DNA of 10,453 bases from Candidatus Helarchaeota ASGARD archaeon Hel_GB_B. Its GTDB lineage: Archaea; Asgardarchaeota; Lokiarchaeia; Helarchaeales; HEL-GB-B. Below the pieces are notes generated by a model that was given only the letters and a program-made list of their open reading frames with translations, was not told the origin of the DNA and did no database searches. Of the stretch, positions 1,376 through 9,236 are shown in pieces. The translations under genes and the position numbers were made by a program. The DNA lies in NCBI GenBank assembly GCA_005191425.1, contig SUPR01000106.1, positions 1 through 10,453 on the forward strand. The letters are read 5' to 3'. How positions within the stretch are numbered: the stretch's first letter is position 1; each line of letters opens with the position of its first letter.

Positions 1376-4300
1376 TTATTTTTTCTCGATTATTAGTTTA
1401 CTACCGCATTTAACACAGACACTACCGCCTGGAGGGATATCTGCACCACAATTTGCACATACATATTGTTTAGGAATCGGGATCGGCTTTATTTCAGAAC
1501 TTGGCGTAGAAGATGCTGGTGTATTAGAAGATAACTTAGATTTTTTGATTTGTTTTTCTGGTTTTTTTAGTTGTTTTTTCTTTTTTTTACTTAAAAGTAA
1601 AGCAATTGGGAGCATGATTGCAATCCCAACTATTAGTCCAATTATTAATGACATATAATCAATAATACTGCTTGCTGGAGTAGGGATTATCGCAACCATT
1701 GAAGTTGATACTTTACTTTCATGACCAGCTTCATCTACCGCAATAATTGTATAACTATATGTCCCTGAAATTAATGGTCCATCAACATAAAAGTTAGTAG
1801 AATAATCAACCATAGATATCAATTGATTATTTCTAAAAATTTTATAGTATTGTATATCTGAGGAAGTAGAATAATCCCAAGTAAGATTTATTAAATTTCC
1901 AGAAAGTGAATAGTCTAAATTTGTAGGAGCTAGCGGAATTATATTGTCCACCCTAAACCTAATAGAAATTACATTGAAATGTCCAATGTTATCTAATATC
2001 TTAATCGTTAGGATATAGGTTCCATCAGGTATATGAGTTGAATTAGTGAAATTCCAGACATCAGAAATAGATAGAATTGTAGATGGATAATATATCGATG
2101 CATTTCCACCTAATATTTGTGCTGTAGCAATACCCGAGCCATTTCCATCATCACTATAACCCGAAATAATAATTTGATTTCCTGACAATATATTTGATGT
2201 AGTACTAATTGAAATAGGATCATTATTATCAATAGTAATTTGTTGAGACATTATCTTTTTTTGTCCAACGATATCTAATAAAACCACTTTAACTGTATAG
2301 AAGTTATCTGAAATTTGTTTACTATTCCAATCTACCACCTGGGTAAACCCACCTGAAGGATCTGAAATTGAATCGATTAAATTAGTCCCGATATAAAACT
2401 CTATTAATATTGGATTAGTTTCAATCCAACTAGCTCGAATAGTTAAATAGCTGCAGAAATTAATATCTCCTTTACTTAAATAATGTCCATCCGAGTCAAT
2501 GATTTCTAAATTTGTAATTACTGGGTATGTATTATCTAAATAAATAGAAACATTTGGAAAAATGTTAGATTTATCAGAATGATCTGTAGTATCATTTAAT
2601 AGTATATAGAACTGCTTTTTGCCATTAAATGAATTTGAAACCCATGTAATGTTAAATTTATTTCCGATAAATGTGGTCGTAGAACTCAGAAGTATGTTAT
2701 TTTGGTCGAACAGTTCTGCAATTGATGGATATATCTCATTATCAAATTGACAAATAAATGTCAATGTTCCATTAAAATATTTATCGCTATTATTATAATT
2801 ATGCCCTGCCATATCAATAATATTTAGAATTTTAGTGCCATTAGGTGCAATATTATCGATATTTACATCAAATTTTTGTATAGTGGACATATTAGAATTA
2901 CCAGCAATATCAATAACTTTTATTTTTAATTTAGCAAGTCCATTCAATCCTACAATGTTCCATTTTAAAGTAGCACGTGTAGTAGTCCCAGTATAATTAG
3001 TCCCTATAAGAGTTGAGCCATTATAGAACTCAACAGCATATATATTTTGTTCAAAGTATGACCCAAAAATTTGTATTTTATCTCTAAACTCCGAATCTCC
3101 CAATAAACTATCATGTGTTATAGTCCAATTGTCAGTAACTCTTGAAACTTCTACTATTGCAGGTGGCGTATTATCTATAAAGATAATGTATGTCGAAGAT
3201 TGTGCAAGACTATTAGTAGAATCATTTGCATATATAACAAGATGGTATTCTCCATCATTTATTAGTCCTAAAGTGCTCCAATTTGCATTATAAATATCAC
3301 CGACTTGGTGTATTAAAGTTACATTTTCAATATGTCCCGATTTATTTGAAATTTCACACCAAACTTTTGAAATACCATTGGGATCTGAAGCGGAGACATT
3401 GATCAATACTTTATCTTTATAGTAAAAACCATTTATTGGGGAATAAATTGGCTCTGAAATGTATGGGATATTTGAATCAATAAAAAAGCTTCGATTTAAA
3501 GTACGATTAATTCCATTACCTAATACATCATTGGCTAAAATTGAAATATTATATGCACCATCAGTATATAATTGGCCGGTAATATTTTCCCAAATACCAG
3601 TCCAAATATTTGTTAAACTTATTCTACTTAAAATAACAGTGGTATTATATGTTTCATTGGTAATATATGCCCAAACATCATATACTCCTGCAAGATCCGT
3701 TATTAGCGTAGTGATTGTGAGGTTTGCGTGGTAAGCTTTATTTTTCTTTGGGGAATAAATTTCTTGAATATCCGGAACGGAATTATCGAAATACAATGAA
3801 ATAAGTTGCGTATTTATATTTCCAATAGTATCATTAGCATATAGAGTTAAATTGTATAATCCATCAGAATATAATGAGGTATCAAATGTATCATTCATGT
3901 AGTATATATTTGAAGTATTGCGTAAAAAGAGATATTTACTGTTCCATGTTTCATTCCAGATCTTTGCGCAAACAACATCTATTTTATGAATGTTTTCAAT
4001 TATTGATGCATTAATTAAGAGGTATTTATTATAATATTGGTTATTTATTGGTGATAATAGCTGAATAATCGGTGGAGTAGAGTCTGGAATTTCGGATGCG
4101 TTCAATCGAGTGCTAATCAAGCTACTGTTATCCATTGCAAGAATCCAGTATCTATAACGGGTACCTTCTATTACATTGAAATCTACGAAACTTAAATCAG
4201 ACGCAGGCAATATTTTTAAAATATATGGATTTTTTTCTGTAGAATTTCGTAGGATTATAAAACGATCGACATCTGGAGATGTAGAATTAGTCCATTCTAA

Positions 4301-7300
4301 TAAAACCGAGCCATCGGGTTTCGCAGTAGCATTAAAATCTGAAGGTGGGTTCGGTGGAATTCCATCTGAAGAGTATTTACTTCGTATAAATGTATAATTC
4401 ATTATTCCTACATTTTTAAAGTCTGTTTCGTTAATCGTCCCATAGACCTTTATTTGTAGATACTGATTTGAAATGTTCCCAATTGTAATTATACCATTAT
4501 ATGTATCTGTAATTGGGTTATAATTCAGCGTCTCATAAGTTATTAATTGAGCGGGATTATTTGTGCCATTATTAATAAAAATATATGCTGATACCGAGTC
4601 CGCTCCAACGTAATGATTATACGGATGTGAAAAACTGACGTTCAATATTAAAGTATTTTCTATTGTTTGATTATCGCTGGGAGTTAAAATATAACATTTT
4701 AATTTCTCTGGGTTATTAGTAGTTATATACGTATCAGGTGAAATAAATTCAAAATTACCCATACCACCAAGTCCGCCCCAAAAAGTATTATTTGTATATC
4801 TAGTTATTGTTAATATATAATCTTGGTCTTCTATGTTGTAAGTAGCCCACCCAGAATCATTAGAGGACATAAATTGAAACGTGCGGTTCACTTCCCAAAT
4901 TGATTTTGTATTGTTCCATTTCAGTCCACCAGTGTGTTCTGCACTTAAAAAGGCAGGAGCAAAAGGTACACCCATATACAATAAATTTAAAGATGATTGG
5001 TGTAAATTTGGAACGTATTTATCTGGATCATAAATTGAATAACTCATATATGGGGTATATTCTGGCCCTAAATTTGTAGAACCTGATAACGTAAAATTCA
5101 GCATAAAAATATTTTGTACATTTGACCAATTTGATCCATGATTAATCGTTATTGGCGTAGGGTTAGATACATTAATGATAGTTGTGTTCTCCCAATATTC
5201 TAATATTAGCCAATCTGCACCGTCTGTAATTAAAGTCGAGGGTAGGAGTAGATATTCACCGTTCTGGAGGTCTGATGAGATTAAGTCACCTCTTAAACTC
5301 CCAGCACCAATTCCAGTAACATATATTTCTTGATAGGTTTCTGGGACATATGGGTCCAGGTTATCAAGTCTTAGGACTGATATAAAGAATTGTCCCAATA
5401 AAGGAAAGCCAGCACCATATAATGTACATCCAGACGCGACATATGATACTGCACTTAGTTGCTTAACACCCGAAATAAGGTCTCCATTTTTTGGGTCATT
5501 TATACCAATTCCATTTGCTTTAATATAAATTTCTCTCTCTAAGACTAATGAGACATTATTTCTATCAAATATAACTACAACAATCGTATAATTCCCAGTT
5601 TGAAATAGCCAATCAGTCGACCATTGAAATCTATATATAACTGATGGCTTTAGGTTAGTTTCATTTATAGTAGACCAATTACTAACAAATTTTCTAATTC
5701 CATATATATAATTTAATTGAAGCCAAGTATATGAATATACTTTAATTGTTGAAATATTAACAGGCCCACTTGTTACATTTATTGTAATGTTAATAAGTTC
5801 AAAATGTTTTTTTGAAATATAGCCTTCGACTGGATTTAATATTTCTGCTTGTAATGATACATTATAATTTATTTTAATTTCTTTTGTTATCTCCTGAGAA
5901 TATCCTTGAGAATATAATTTGATCTCAAAGATATAATTACCATTTGGGATATTATAGAAATTTACTTTATTAAGCATCGATGAAAACCAAGTATCGTTTG
6001 TCATTTGATAAACAACTCCTTTATGCATAATTGATTTATTAACAGAAGTCATTGAAATTAAATGTCCATTATTGTGTGAATCAATTAATAATTTAGTGTA
6101 ATTTGGTTGAGTGCATTCATGCATGTAAATCTCTTTTTTTACACTCGAACTAACATTATAGATAAAGCTAAGAATTTCAGTATTTTGCTCTAAATAAGAT
6201 ATTAAAATATTTCCTGTTATATCTATTGCAATAGAACAAGCGAAATCAGATGTTTTATTTCCATTATTAGTAATATTGATTTTATTCGACCAAATTCCAC
6301 TTGAACTAATATTGAAATACTGAATATCATCATTCTCTCCGCTATAAATAATATGTTTGTTATTATTTGAATCAATTTTGATATAACCATAAGTAGAATA
6401 TCTAGAATCGGTAAATTCGTTTAGAATTTTAATTTCACTGGTTTTACCTGAAATCATTGAATAATTTAAATAGCAGAAGCGGTAGGGTGAGCTAAAATTA
6501 ACTGCCAATAAATGGAATACCATTGATGAGTCTAAATCTGCACTTATTGCCATCAAATTATTCATATTAGTAATATTTACTATAGACCCTAAAATTCCAC
6601 CCAAAAAAATACCACGATAATTTATATTAGTACCATTACTCCATATTGCATAAATGGATGTCCCGGAATTAAGTAAAATTGGGAATTTATTATTTATACC
6701 ATGTGAAATAGCAATTGGAACTCCAAAATTCCCTTTTGTATTATTCACATACATAATAGTCTCAGTAGGGTTCTCTTCCGTAAACGCTATATGAACATTG
6801 TCTAAAGAATCAGTAGCAATTGCAACAAATGTATCATTAAAAGTATTATTTGTAATTTGAACGACTTCCCAGTTAGTCCCATTAAATTTTTGATAAAAAA
6901 CATCAAATGTTGTGGGCTTTACTCTTTTTGAATAAACAACATGAATATTATTATGAGAATCAAGACATGCATCGAAATATAGAACATCTTTTGAATCATC
7001 GTTAAAATTAGAAAAGTCATAAACATTTGATAGGGAAAATTTCGCTTCTGGTGGAATATTATTAAATTTGGACCATATATTCTGGTTTATATAGAAATCT
7101 TTGGGTTTCCAAACATTTAATTCTAATGAATCCACTTGTTTAGGATTAGTAAATTTTACTCTAATTGGAATTGAGGTATTAGTCTCACTATTAGGAGATA
7201 ATAATCTTATGTCATTGATCGGATTAGAAAAATTTACTTTTAATTCTTTTAATTCTCCAATGCCGCGCCAACTTGGCTCATAATCTAGTAACGTATAGGT

Positions 7301-8296
7301 TAATTTTGATGGTTCATCAAAATCTACGAATTCATTATTTTGATAGCTAAAATTTTGAACTCCGCAATTTTTTAGATATAACATAATTGTAGAATATAAT
7401 TCATTTGCAATTCCCTGAGAAGCAGCGGATATTTTTGATAAATTAAGAACATCAAATATGTCTAAAGTAAAGTTATTTAAAGTCCCAAAATTGAAAAAGT
7501 TTGTATAGTCCAGGTGGATTGTTGTCATTTTTTGAACTGGTTTTCCTGCATTGTTCAAAATAATCCATTGCAAATCTGCTTTAGATGCTGAATTTATAGC
7601 ATTTTGAGAAAAAATATCGCTTAGCCCATGTGGTACATCGTTTTTAAATTTAGAAAAAAAGTAATCAAAATTTATTAATCCAGAAAAATTATTCCCAAAA
7701 ATATAGGTCATTAAGTTTGAATTATAATTTTTCGGATTATAAGGAAATGTCCCACGTGATTGAAATGGAAATTTTCCTAAATAATTTACTTTTGGAATTC
7801 CAAATGCATTTTCAAAGTCTTTTATTAAAATATTACAATGGTCAAGAGCTATCTTAGGACTTATTAAAGATGAAGTAGCTATCCCAATGAAGTAATCGGG
7901 TTTCGGAAGATCATAGTAATCAAAAAGATCATATTTATCTAAATGCTTCTGGACAATAAAAAAGACTGCATATTTTCCATTATACTGCGGTAAAGAAAGG
8001 TCTAGTCCGAAATCTAAGTTCGTCCAGTTAAAAATTCCATCAAATGTTAAATTTCCATATCTATCCACATTGATATTTACTGATTCATAAAATTTTCCTG
8101 TTTTATTATAAGTCTCGTAATTATAATTCGTATTAATTCCTTGATTTGTAGTTTCTTTAAATGATTTTGGCGTAGATACAGTATTTGATACAAACATACC
8201 CGAATAGAATAATTGAAATGGTAAAATTGTTGATACCATTAGTGCTAAAATTATGAAATTGTATATTTTATGTATTTTATTGCTCATTTTAATCAT
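1376..8296 (-). CDS. Giant membrane-anchored surface glycoprotein: signal peptide, unknown N-domain, 7-blade beta-propeller, about 12 Ig-like domains, 2 FN3, TM helix, cytoplasmic zinc ribbon
   Basis: Uninterrupted 2306-aa ORF. It has a basic/hydrophobic N-terminus and seven D(S)xxxxH-type blades. Recurring D(N/S)xxP...DGxYxLxIxAxDxxG(N/H) Ig-like units are flanked by two FN3 units (PPNPPSDF..LEW..YRYWILAMD; PLAPTNL..LTW..YSYTIIAVD). A TM helix (MSLIIGLIVGIAIMLPIALLL) precedes KKKKK and CANC-x10-CVKC. There are dozens of N-x-S/T sequons, and an AAGGA lies 6 nt upstream of the ATG. Confidence 0.9.
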   Translation of the reverse strand: MIKMSNKIHKIYNFIILALMVSTILPFQLFYSGMFVSNTVSTPKSFKETTNQGINTNYNYETYNKTGKFYESVNINVDRYGNLTFDGIFNWTNLDFGLDLSLPQYNGKYAVFFIVQKHLDKYDLFDYYDLPKPDYFIGIATSSLISPKIALDHCNILIKDFENAFGIPKVNYLGKFPFQSRGTFPYNPKNYNSNLMTYIFGNNFSGLINFDYFFSKFKNDVPHGLSDIFSQNAINSASKADLQWIILNNAGKPVQKMTTIHLDYTNFFNFGTLNNFTLDIFDVLNLSKISAASQGIANELYSTIMLYLKNCGVQNFSYQNNEFVDFDEPSKLTYTLLDYEPSWRGIGELKELKVNFSNPINDIRLLSPNSETNTSIPIRVKFTNPKQVDSLELNVWKPKDFYINQNIWSKFNNIPPEAKFSLSNVYDFSNFNDDSKDVLYFDACLDSHNNIHVVYSKRVKPTTFDVFYQKFNGTNWEVVQITNNTFNDTFVAIATDSLDNVHIAFTEENPTETIMYVNNTKGNFGVPIAISHGINNKFPILLNSGTSIYAIWSNGTNINYRGIFLGGILGSIVNITNMNNLMAISADLDSSMVFHLLAVNFSSPYRFCYLNYSMISGKTSEIKILNEFTDSRYSTYGYIKIDSNNNKHIIYSGENDDIQYFNISSSGIWSNKINITNNGNKTSDFACSIAIDITGNILISYLEQNTEILSFIYNVSSSVKKEIYMHECTQPNYTKLLIDSHNNGHLISMTSVNKSIMHKGVVYQMTNDTWFSSMLNKVNFYNIPNGNYIFEIKLYSQGYSQEITKEIKINYNVSLQAEILNPVEGYISKKHFELINITINVTSGPVNISTIKVYSYTWLQLNYIYGIRKFVSNWSTINETNLKPSVIYRFQWSTDWLFQTGNYTIVVVIFDRNNVSLVLEREIYIKANGIGINDPKNGDLISGVKQLSAVSYVASGCTLYGAGFPLLGQFFISVLRLDNLDPYVPETYQEIYVTGIGAGSLRGDLISSDLQNGEYLLLPSTLITDGADWLILEYWENTTIINVSNPTPITINHGSNWSNVQNIFMLNFTLSGSTNLGPEYTPYMSYSIYDPDKYVPNLHQSSLNLLYMGVPFAPAFLSAEHTGGLKWNNTKSIWEVNRTFQFMSSNDSGWATYNIEDQDYILTITRYTNNTFWGGLGGMGNFEFISPDTYITTNNPEKLKCYILTPSDNQTIENTLILNVSFSHPYNHYVGADSVSAYIFINNGTNNPAQLITYETLNYNPITDTYNGIITIGNISNQYLQIKVYGTINETDFKNVGIMNYTFIRSKYSSDGIPPNPPSDFNATAKPDGSVLLEWTNSTSPDVDRFIILRNSTEKNPYILKILPASDLSFVDFNVIEGTRYRYWILAMDNSSLISTRLNASEIPDSTPPIIQLLSPINNQYYNKYLLINASIIENIHKIDVVCAKIWNETWNSKYLFLRNTSNIYYMNDTFDTSLYSDGLYNLTLYANDTIGNINTQLISLYFDNSVPDIQEIYSPKKNKAYHANLTITTLITDLAGVYDVWAYITNETYNTTVILSRISLTNIWTGIWENITGQLYTDGAYNISILANDVLGNGINRTLNRSFFIDSNIPYISEPIYSPINGFYYKDKVLINVSASDPNGISKVWCEISNKSGHIENVTLIHQVGDIYNANWSTLGLINDGEYHLVIYANDSTNSLAQSSTYIIFIDNTPPAIVEVSRVTDNWTITHDSLLGDSEFRDKIQIFGSYFEQNIYAVEFYNGSTLIGTNYTGTTTRATLKWNIVGLNGLAKLKIKVIDIAGNSNMSTIQKFDVNIDNIAPNGTKILNIIDMAGHNYNNSDKYFNGTLTFICQFDNEIYPSIAELFDQNNILLSSTTTFIGNKFNITWVSNSFNGKKQFYILLNDTTDHSDKSNIFPNVSIYLDNTYPVITNLEIIDSDGHYLSKGDINFCSYLTIRASWIETNPILIEFYIGTNLIDSISDPSGGFTQVVDWNSKQISDNFYTVKVVLLDIVGQKKIMSQQITIDNNDPISISTTSNILSGNQIIISGYSDDGNGSGIATAQILGGNASIYYPSTILSISDVWNFTNSTHIPDGTYILTIKILDNIGHFNVISIRFRVDNIIPLAPTNLDYSLSGNLINLTWDYSTSSDIQYYKIFRNNQLISMVDYSTNFYVDGPLISGTYSYTIIAVDEAGHESKVSTSMVAIIPTPASSIIDYMSLIIGLIVGIAIMLPIALLLSKKKKKQLKKPEKQIKKSKLSSNTPASSTPSSEIKPIPIPKQYVCANCGADIPPGGSVCVKCGSKLIIEKK
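1943..4085 (-). repeat. Seven tandem about 100-aa Ig-like repeats (protein level)
   Basis: Units begin DSTPP, DNSVP, DSNIP, DNTPP, DNIAP, DNTYP and DNNDP. Each ends with a (DG)xYxxxI/LxxxDxxG(N/H)-like strand pair, degenerate in some units. The units are diverged, with no long exact DNA repeat seen. Confidence 0.8.
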
Positions 8297-8447: not shown

Positions 8448-9236
8448 ATGATAATATGTGTTTTTATGGGCTATCCATATCAAGCTGATTGGTGGTACAA
8501 ATATTTTTGGTTTATAAAAATTGATGCTACAAACATGGCAGATCCAACAATAGCCGCGACAGTTTCAGCAATGATTATTATGGATATAGTAGTCTATATG
8601 TTATCCATCTTGACTTTTTATCATTCATATAAAAATTTTGGGCTATGAAAATCTGTTTTATTTTTAGGTGGTTCATTTTTTTATACTGAATTAGAAGAAA
8701 TAATATGAATGATATTTGGATATTTTAATCCGAGTTTTCCAACATACCAATTTAATTATTATAAAGCAGGGTTCACTTGGTTTTTATGTATTCCTGTTGC
8801 GACTTGTCTTGGGTGGTATTTTCTTGCGTATGGATGTTTTTATATAGGCGAAAAAATCTTTAATAGTTGGAATAAAACTAATTGGGGTTTAGTAAAAACT
8901 GCAATTGTAGCTGGGCTTCTGGCTATGAATATAGATTTAATGGTAGACCCTTTTGCAGTCAGAAATAAGCAATGGTATTGATTATCTACACAGAGTGAAA
9001 CTATCTGGATACTGGGAATTCCCTATTCTAATTTTATTGGATGGTTCTTGTTAATTTTTTTATTCGCAATTTTCTGGAAAAAAGTAACTGATCTAAAACC
9101 AAAATATGGGACTACTAAAACAACGATTATTTTTAGTATAGGACTTATGGGCCTTTTATTTATGACAATAGGAATTATATTTATAATATCAATAATTTTT
9201 AGTCCATTTAATGGGACGATAATAGGATTTATGTGA
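8448..9236 (+). pseudogene. CruF-like (Caroten_synth/DUF422 family) membrane protein, about 262 aa, interrupted by three in-frame TGA codons; pseudogene or recoded gene
   Basis: ORFs 8448, 8709 and 9048 share one frame, and the gaps between them are open apart from TGA at 8646, 8706 and 8979. The joined translation has family motifs: HSYKNFG, E..FG..Y, IPVATCLGW, DLMVDPFAV..WY*, GIPYSNFIGWF. Confidence 0.8.

Follow-up and report, generated by a model that had tools for sequence, protein, structure and literature searches.

In-frame UGA codons within protein-coding genes have several described origins. In NCBI translation table 4, UGA is reassigned from stop to tryptophan, a code used by the Mycoplasmatales and several insect endosymbionts. 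In other organisms tRNA-Trp is known to read UGA as a near-cognate codon, one example being a tRNA-Trp with a 4-bp anticodon stem (PMC13092985). Within the Asgard archaea, selenocysteine usage has been described for Lokiarchaeota (Mariotti et al., 2016; PMC4989117), where the recoded UGA codons align with cysteine, are conserved among relatives and are served by a SECIS element. Pseudogenes provide the remaining comparison. Mutation in prokaryotes is usually biased from GC to AT (Hershberg and Petrov, 2010; Hildebrand et al., 2010), and prokaryotic pseudogenes under this bias carry disabling point mutations in one lineage while the orthologues stay intact (PMC2936535; PMC2936529). In such genes pN/pS moves towards 1, new changes are overwhelmingly GC-to-AT and assorted lesions are found in other genes. 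A literature search on pseudogenes in Helarchaeota returned nothing relevant.

Here we analyze a stretch of 10,453 bases (the window), which is the whole of contig C10 from a Helarchaeales metagenome-assembled genome (MAG G000; 3.54 Mb, 182 contigs, 28% G+C). Near-identical proteins in databases bear names that assign the MAG to Helarchaeota/Helarchaeales, an Asgard group. The window contains a membrane-protein gene of the Caroten_synth family that is interrupted by three in-frame TGA codons at tryptophan positions. The original prediction offered three readings of this pattern: gene-specific decoding of UGA as Trp or restorative mRNA editing, a young pseudogene formed by strand-biased G-to-A change, and a consensus error. 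Comparison with closely related strains indicates, with a probability of roughly 0.88, that the gene is a young, strain-specific pseudogene in one Helarchaeales MAG lineage. The locus is of a known kind, ordinary gene decay, and not a new reading of the genetic code; like other prokaryotic pseudogenes it has disabling point mutations in a single lineage, and we find no essential difference from them in the window gene.

Identity of the interrupted gene

The gene is located as follows.

8448..9236, + strand: Caroten_synth (PF04240, "CruF-like") membrane-protein gene, here read as a pseudogene; identified by its Pfam match and by intact versions in sister strains and in the same-genus genome G001

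With TGA read as Trp, the frame encodes a polytopic protein of 262 residues that matches PF04240 at an E-value of 4.4e-14 (53.3 bits against a gathering cut-off of 25 bits, profile positions 11-198 of 209). Translation probably starts at the ATG at 8466, where the sister-strain annotation places it (256 aa), and intact versions of 256/262 aa are found in the sister strains, with a further intact version in G001. The D..DP...WxW...GIP..NF.GW motif that had been named for the family is present, and in an alignment of 17 family sequences the invariant columns are D163, D167, P168, W178, I191-P192, N195-F196 and G198-W199. Both the score and these conserved motif residues place the protein in PF04240.

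The CruF/Caroten_synth family PF04240 is that of the carotenoid hydratases of Deinococcus and haloarchaea, and the window gene resembles it in its significant Pfam match and its D..DP, WxW and GIP..NF.GW motifs. The genomic setting is unlike that of CruF-type carotenoid hydratases. A search of G000 (93.7% complete) recovered no phytoene/squalene synthase (PF00494), and a 475-aa FAD oxidoreductase encoded 8 kb upstream on the sister contig is weakly CrtI-like, at 110 bits against a crtI_fam cut-off of 238. None of the NCBIfam models names the window protein. "CruF" would thus serve as a family label, and a carotenoid hydratase function is not supported by this gene content. Since G000 holds at least two Caroten_synth genes and yet no detected PF00494 gene, the role of the family in Helarchaeales is probably something other than carotenoid synthesis. 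Helarchaeales genomes carry two to four Caroten_synth paralogues each, and G000 retains an intact paralogue on contig C161, which makes the loss of one copy plausible and unremarkable.

Upstream of the gene, the window holds an intact open reading frame (ORF) of 2306 aa (1376-8296, - strand) with faint Pfam matches to the Ig-like families Big_7 and Big_13. This ORF is kept in the sister strains at 2303 aa with a pN/pS of 0.27, while in G001 another gene occupies the position upstream of the CruF-like orthologue.

Ancestral state of the three TGA codons

The sister set represents one Helarchaeales species and comprises four NCBI MAG contigs (from GCA_054383815.1, GCA_054386495.1, GCA_054387555.1 and GCA_054387775.1), one JGI metagenome contig (L046) and contigs of three Logan runs from a hydrothermal vent (X1-X3). 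The four NCBI contigs are 99.1% identical to the window across all 10,453 bases. A further Logan run, X4, is from marine sediment. The codons of interest and their state in these relatives are listed below.

8646..8648, + strand: nonsense codon 1, TGG to TGA at Trp67; G at 8648 in the four sister MAG contigs, L046, X1-X3 and G001, A in the window and in X4

8706..8708, + strand: nonsense codon 2, TGG to TGA at Trp87, with an ATG directly after it; G at 8708 in the four sister MAG contigs, L046, X1-X3 and G001, A in the window and in X4

8979..8981, + strand: nonsense codon 3, TGG to TGA at the family-invariant Trp178; G at 8981 in the sisters and G001, no X4 contig at this position

9234..9236, + strand: natural terminator, also TGA (tetranucleotide TGAA); TAG in the same column of the G001 orthologue, with the sister proteins ending at the same residue

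The description of the reading frame given in the original prediction is accurate. The three TGA codons lie in one frame, in the contexts FGL*KSVLF, LEEII*MIFG and KQWY*LST, with no TAA, TAG or frameshift, and they leave ORFs at 8448-8648, 8709-8981 and 9048-9236. The third does fall on a conserved tryptophan, W178 being invariant among the 17 aligned sequences, and the first two are indeed plausible tryptophan sites, as W67 and W87 are Trp in most of these family members. The earlier hand counts were also exact, at 3 TGA and 11 TGG codons in this gene, while the five remaining ORFs contain 46 TGG and no internal TGA, and the quoted p of about 0.01 compares with a Fisher p of 0.0106.

In all four NCBI sister contigs the base at 8648, 8708 and 8981 is G and the 256-aa protein is intact. 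TGG is likewise found at all three sites in L046 and in the contigs of X1-X3. The G001 orthologue, at 76% amino-acid identity, is intact and has TGG in all three columns. The A allele occurs solely in the window MAG and in contigs of X4, a run of about 3x depth that may be the MAG's own source; these X4 contigs are 100% identical to the window and cover 8648 and 8708 but not 8981. A scan of JGI metagenome contigs for either allele at the third site recovered one contig, of the TGG sister type, and no second sample with the TGA allele. Because the 99.1%-identical sisters and G001 all carry TGG and the A is limited to the window and X4, TGG is the ancestral codon at all three sites, and the changes to TGA are derived, having arisen within about 1% of sequence divergence. 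An alignment of orthologues had been proposed as a check on recoding, and its outcome, TGG at every site in an open frame, counts against it.

At sites 1 and 2 the TGA begins the tetranucleotide TGAA, which is also found at the gene's own terminator, so the context gives no sign of favouring readthrough. The G001 orthologue has TAG where the window gene has its terminal TGA, which indicates that TGA is a working stop of the window gene too, and TGA also ends the window ORF at 99-812. At 8706-8711 the sequence reads TGAATG, and termination-reinitiation there could in principle yield a separate fragment of 90 residues from the ORF at 8709-8981.

Mutation spectrum and loss of constraint

The window differs from the four sister contigs at 86 fixed positions, 16 of which fall inside the 789-base gene. 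This gives a density of 2.0% in the gene against 0.72% elsewhere on the contig, an increase of about 2.8-fold (Poisson p = 3e-4). The direction of change is also distinct: within the gene, 15 differences are A or T in the window and G or C in the sisters, with 1 in reverse, compared to 28 against 33 outside the gene (Fisher p = 5e-4). A pseudogene produced by strand-biased G-to-A change had been suggested, but on the + strand the gene differs from the sisters by 7 G/A and 7 C/T changes, so that the bias is from GC to AT on both strands.

Protein-level measures point in the same direction. Between the window and the sisters, pN/pS is 0.69-0.75 in the gene, compared to 0.00-0.28 in its window neighbours, while the long-term value for the gene, between the sisters and G001, is 0.18. 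Divided at the first TGA, with small counts in both parts, pN/pS is 0.24 before it (2 non-synonymous and 2 synonymous changes) and 1.02 after it (8 against 2). A dN/dS for the segments after the first TGA had been called for to distinguish decay from recoding, and the value of about 1 argues against recoding. When changes are polarized by parsimony with G001, an outgroup at 87% identity such that some synonymous C/T differences may sit on the wrong branch, 10 of 10 window-derived changes are missense or nonsense and 3 of 5 sister-derived changes are synonymous. Residue changes unique to the window number 9, and those unique to the sisters 2. Six window-derived missense changes fall in the coding sequence that begins at 8466 (8565 P>S, 8689 G>E, 8713 T>I, 8905 T>I, 8967 E>K and 9138 V>I), and one more window change, 8457 G>C, affects the N-terminal extension that precedes 8466. 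One of the six affects a near-invariant position.

8689..8689, + strand: Gly81Glu, a window-derived G-to-A change polarized with G001, at a near-invariant Gly in the YTG-LEE motif

While the counts are small, every measure points to a loss of constraint in the window lineage alone.

Other broken genes in the same strain

The comparison was extended to 46 kb along the sister contig, covered in G000 by contigs C150, C75, C10, C67 and C176. Besides the window gene, four genes are broken in G000 alone, by TAA, TAG, TGA and indels, which brings the affected genes to 5 of about 28 comparable ones. In the reverse control over the same 46 kb, no sister gene is broken relative to G000. The four genes are as follows.

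C75, - strand, stops at 2929 (TAG) and 2176 (TGA): 393-aa gene of no known family, with TGG>TAG and TGG>TGA; intact in the sister at L067:16362-17543

46-kb sister comparison: B12/radical-SAM gene, broken in G000 by CAA>TAA and an indel

C150, - strand, TAA at 928: threonine ammonia-lyase IlvA (TIGR01127, 498 bits), with TTA>TAA at codon 323 of 404; sister at L067:10001-11215

C67 (TAA at 5143, TGA at 5149) and C176 (TGA at 1763): 2631-aa FG-GAP/TSP3 surface-type giant; sister at L068:1639-9534

The 393-aa gene differs from its sister version by 24 non-synonymous changes, including the two nonsense changes, and 2 synonymous ones (pN/pS about 3); its contig, C75, adjoins the window contig. The lesions of the FG-GAP giant comprise one CAA>TAA, two TGG>TGA, one TCA>TAA near indels, and the indels themselves. 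Over its full length, contig C67 shares 92.7% identity with the sister; the alignment has 49 gap openings, and its differences are AT-ward by 208 against 113. The surroundings, at 99% identity, are far less diverged. The truncated IlvA would lose its C-terminal ACT regulatory domain alone, and it may retain enzyme activity.

Three of the broken genes hold the highest pN/pS values of the comparison (0.75-2.99), while IlvA (0.26) and the FG-GAP giant (0.30) are in the range of intact genes, which lie mostly at 0-0.33 with two at 0.48 and 0.70. The original prediction held that an ordinary pseudogene should be accompanied by further lesions in this lineage, and such lesions, of other kinds, are present in neighbouring genes. 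Its view that the effect is specific to one gene is correct within the window, where none of the 46 other Trp codons is TGA, but does not extend to the 46 kb, where the other four genes carry lesions as well. The G000 strain is thus accumulating frameshifts and all three types of stop codon, as expected for ordinary gene decay.

Two other genes of G000 have a similar appearance. A multi-pass membrane protein gene on C23 (near 4891, + strand) has a single in-frame TGA where its paralogues have Trp, and a beta-propeller repeat protein gene on C113 (near 30888, + strand) has an in-frame TGA opposite a paralogue Trp and loses its frame further on. Judged from these alignments, both are probably more pseudogenes.

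Decoding of UGA in the genome

A paralogue-based scan of G000 identified four HdrA paralogues of about 635 aa with an in-frame TGA at the Cys column of the FPTDDCxI-U-IL motif, and about 10 of 17 HdrA-like paralogues have Cys at that column.

C26:48378-50288 (- strand), C41:3841-5751 (+ strand), C122:6704-8611 (+ strand) and C167:223-2127 (+ strand): HdrA-like paralogues with TGA at FPTDDCxI-[TGA]-IL

By sequence, these are selenocysteine genes of the Lokiarchaeota type. The window gene shares with Asgard selenocysteine recoding that it looks split by in-frame UGA and that its genome has a selenocysteine system (PMC4989117). Unlike the sites of that system, those of the window align with Trp, are absent from strains that are 99% identical, and have no room for a 3′ element, with 16 bases alone between the gene and the next one. 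No Rfam family was found in the window at E-values up to 1. A selenoprotein reading was rejected, as all three sites align with Trp and the relatives have TGG.

A genome-wide change of code finds no more support. The window gene is like cases of UGA-to-Trp reassignment and near-cognate reading (PMC13092985) in having TGA where relatives have TGG. It differs from reassignment in that the pattern is confined to the broken genes of one strain, in that TGA remains a terminator on this contig, and in that neighbouring genes also carry TAA and TAG stops and indels. A table 4-like code was rejected on the absence of TGA from the 46 other Trp codons of the window and on the use of TGA to terminate both the ORF at 99-812 and the gene itself. 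Across G000, about 16% of long ORFs end in TGA.

The tRNA set recovered from the MAG is incomplete (7-16 matches with ARAGORN and Rfam), and neither tRNA-Trp, nor a suppressor tRNA, nor a UCA anticodon, nor a tRNA-Sec above cut-off is among the matches. Undetermined tRNAs were resolved by eye as Arg(CCU), Arg(UCG), Gly(UCC), Lys, Met, Ser and Ala. The 16 matches in this 94%-complete MAG lie on C139, C165, C160, C46, C99, C105 and C107 (loci L031-L042), and in many of the tRNAs the anticodon loop, D-loop or variable region is interrupted by an insertion or intron; ARAGORN misses most of these. In-frame stops flanked on each side by 70 or more open codons have a density of 109 per Mb in G000, compared with 120 per Mb in a 400-kb sample of the relative G005; this measure is dominated by same-frame neighbouring genes and is uninformative on pseudogene load. 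The TGA share of such stops is 34% in G000 against 21% in G005, a difference that selenocysteine genes inflate.

Is an all-TGA pattern surprising?

The ancestral gene, of 262 codons, contains 14 TGG, 3 CAA and 1 CAG codons and no CGA. It offers 243 possible G:C-to-A:T transitions, and 32 of them (13%) produce a stop codon: 14 give TGA and 14 give TAG from TGG, 3 change CAA to TAA and 1 changes CAG to TAG. In a gene so rich in Trp, under dominant GC-to-AT transitions, about one change in eight therefore makes a stop. With 9-15 GC-to-AT changes, a neutral model predicts 1.2-2.0 stops and a probability of 0.10-0.32 for three or more; given three stops, the probability that all are TGA is 0.073. 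The all-TGA pattern thus reflects high Trp content, GC-to-AT bias and mild chance (p about 0.07). One counterpoint to a pseudogene is that all three lesions are of the sole nonsense type that would restore the wild-type residue if tRNA-Trp read UGA.

Weighing the explanations

That counterpoint is the starting point for an unlikely alternative, in which UGA is leaky. A near-cognate tRNA-Trp(CCA) would put Trp back at the three sites, the gene would be hypomorphic rather than dead, and a low level of full-length, wild-type-like protein would allow TGG-to-TGA changes to be tolerated and to accumulate ahead of other nonsense changes. Leakiness would explain the three TGA codons here as well as the 6-to-1 excess of TGG>TGA over TGG>TAG when the nonsense changes specific to this lineage are counted over the 46 kb (one-sided binomial p = 0.06). 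The paralogue-based scan of the genome leans the same way, with 6 TGA against 2 TAG opposite Trp, although several of these cases are doubtful and at least two of the TGA cases (on C107 and C171) are antisense or low-complexity frames, so that the scan serves as a lead. Against this, yields multiply over three successive stops to a very low level, and Gly81Glu and the five other missense changes have become fixed with a pN/pS of about 1 after the first TGA. The TGA excess is not significant (p = 0.06-0.07), the context of sites 1 and 2 is that of the gene's own terminator, and other genes of the same lineage are broken by TAA, TAG and indels. Programmed recoding by other means, whether selenocysteine at the three UGA codons, restorative A-to-I editing of the mRNA or a code in which UGA is Trp, is extremely improbable. 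Its one favourable point is that G000 does decode UGA as selenocysteine in the four HdrA paralogues, and it is opposed by the alignment of the three sites with Trp, by their absence from the nearest strains, by the 16-base interval downstream and by the use of TGA as a terminator in the window. As for editing in particular, A-to-I modification of mRNA is not known from archaea, and the TACG-loop context of bacterial TadA editing is not shared by the three sites. The proposal of gene-specific UGA-as-Trp decoding or editing is accordingly not supported, with TGG in relatives, dN/dS of about 1 and other lesions all set against it.

A sequencing artefact is very unlikely as well. Here, cytosine-deamination damage or a low-coverage consensus error in the sediment sample would have produced false G-to-A and C-to-T calls. 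The depth of only about 3x in the one run with the TGA allele would permit this, the excess differences are nearly all GC-to-AT transitions, which is the signature of deamination, and G000 is mildly AT-ward relative to the sister over many genes (249 against 166, hand-summed). The excess is nevertheless limited to 789 bases, with the remaining 9.7 kb symmetric at 28 against 33, and several neighbouring genes are 100% identical to the sister at the protein level. Logan's independent assembly of X4 repeats the A at 8648 and 8708 and is identical to the window across these two of the three sites. Raised pN/pS falls on broken genes, three of which have the highest values, and random error would not produce this. 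Consensus error, the last of the three readings in the original prediction, is thus improbable, and it is the young pseudogene that stands, with intact relatives, pN/pS of about 1 and further lesions in its favour and without the strand bias that was proposed for it.

A probable young pseudogene and its implications

Under the pseudogene reading, one of several Caroten_synth paralogues would have lost selective constraint in a marine-sediment MAG lineage, after which GC-to-AT point mutations would have piled up at about the neutral rate. In a gene unusually rich in Trp (14 TGG in 262 codons), three of these would have converted TGG to TGA. We infer that translation terminates at the three TGA codons; it would be expected to stop at codon 67 and to leave a non-functional fragment. 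TGG is ancestral at these sites, the changes are specific to one lineage, constraint is relaxed, and other genes of the strain are broken by other lesions.

The locus holds a caution for the interpretation of similar genes. Where a Trp-rich gene in an AT-rich genome has newly become unconstrained, "clean" TGG-to-TGA or TGG-to-TAG breaks will tend to arise and mimic programmed recoding. The mimicry arises when the gene is read alone, and comparison with strains that are 99% identical settles the matter. Annotation of G000 calls for the same care, as real selenocysteine genes and pseudogenes both look like TGA-split ORFs in this genome. For the organism itself, comparison with the hydrothermal-vent sister strains reveals a notable number of very recent knock-outs in the sediment MAG, which is of modest interest for the population genetics of slow-growing subsurface Asgard archaea.
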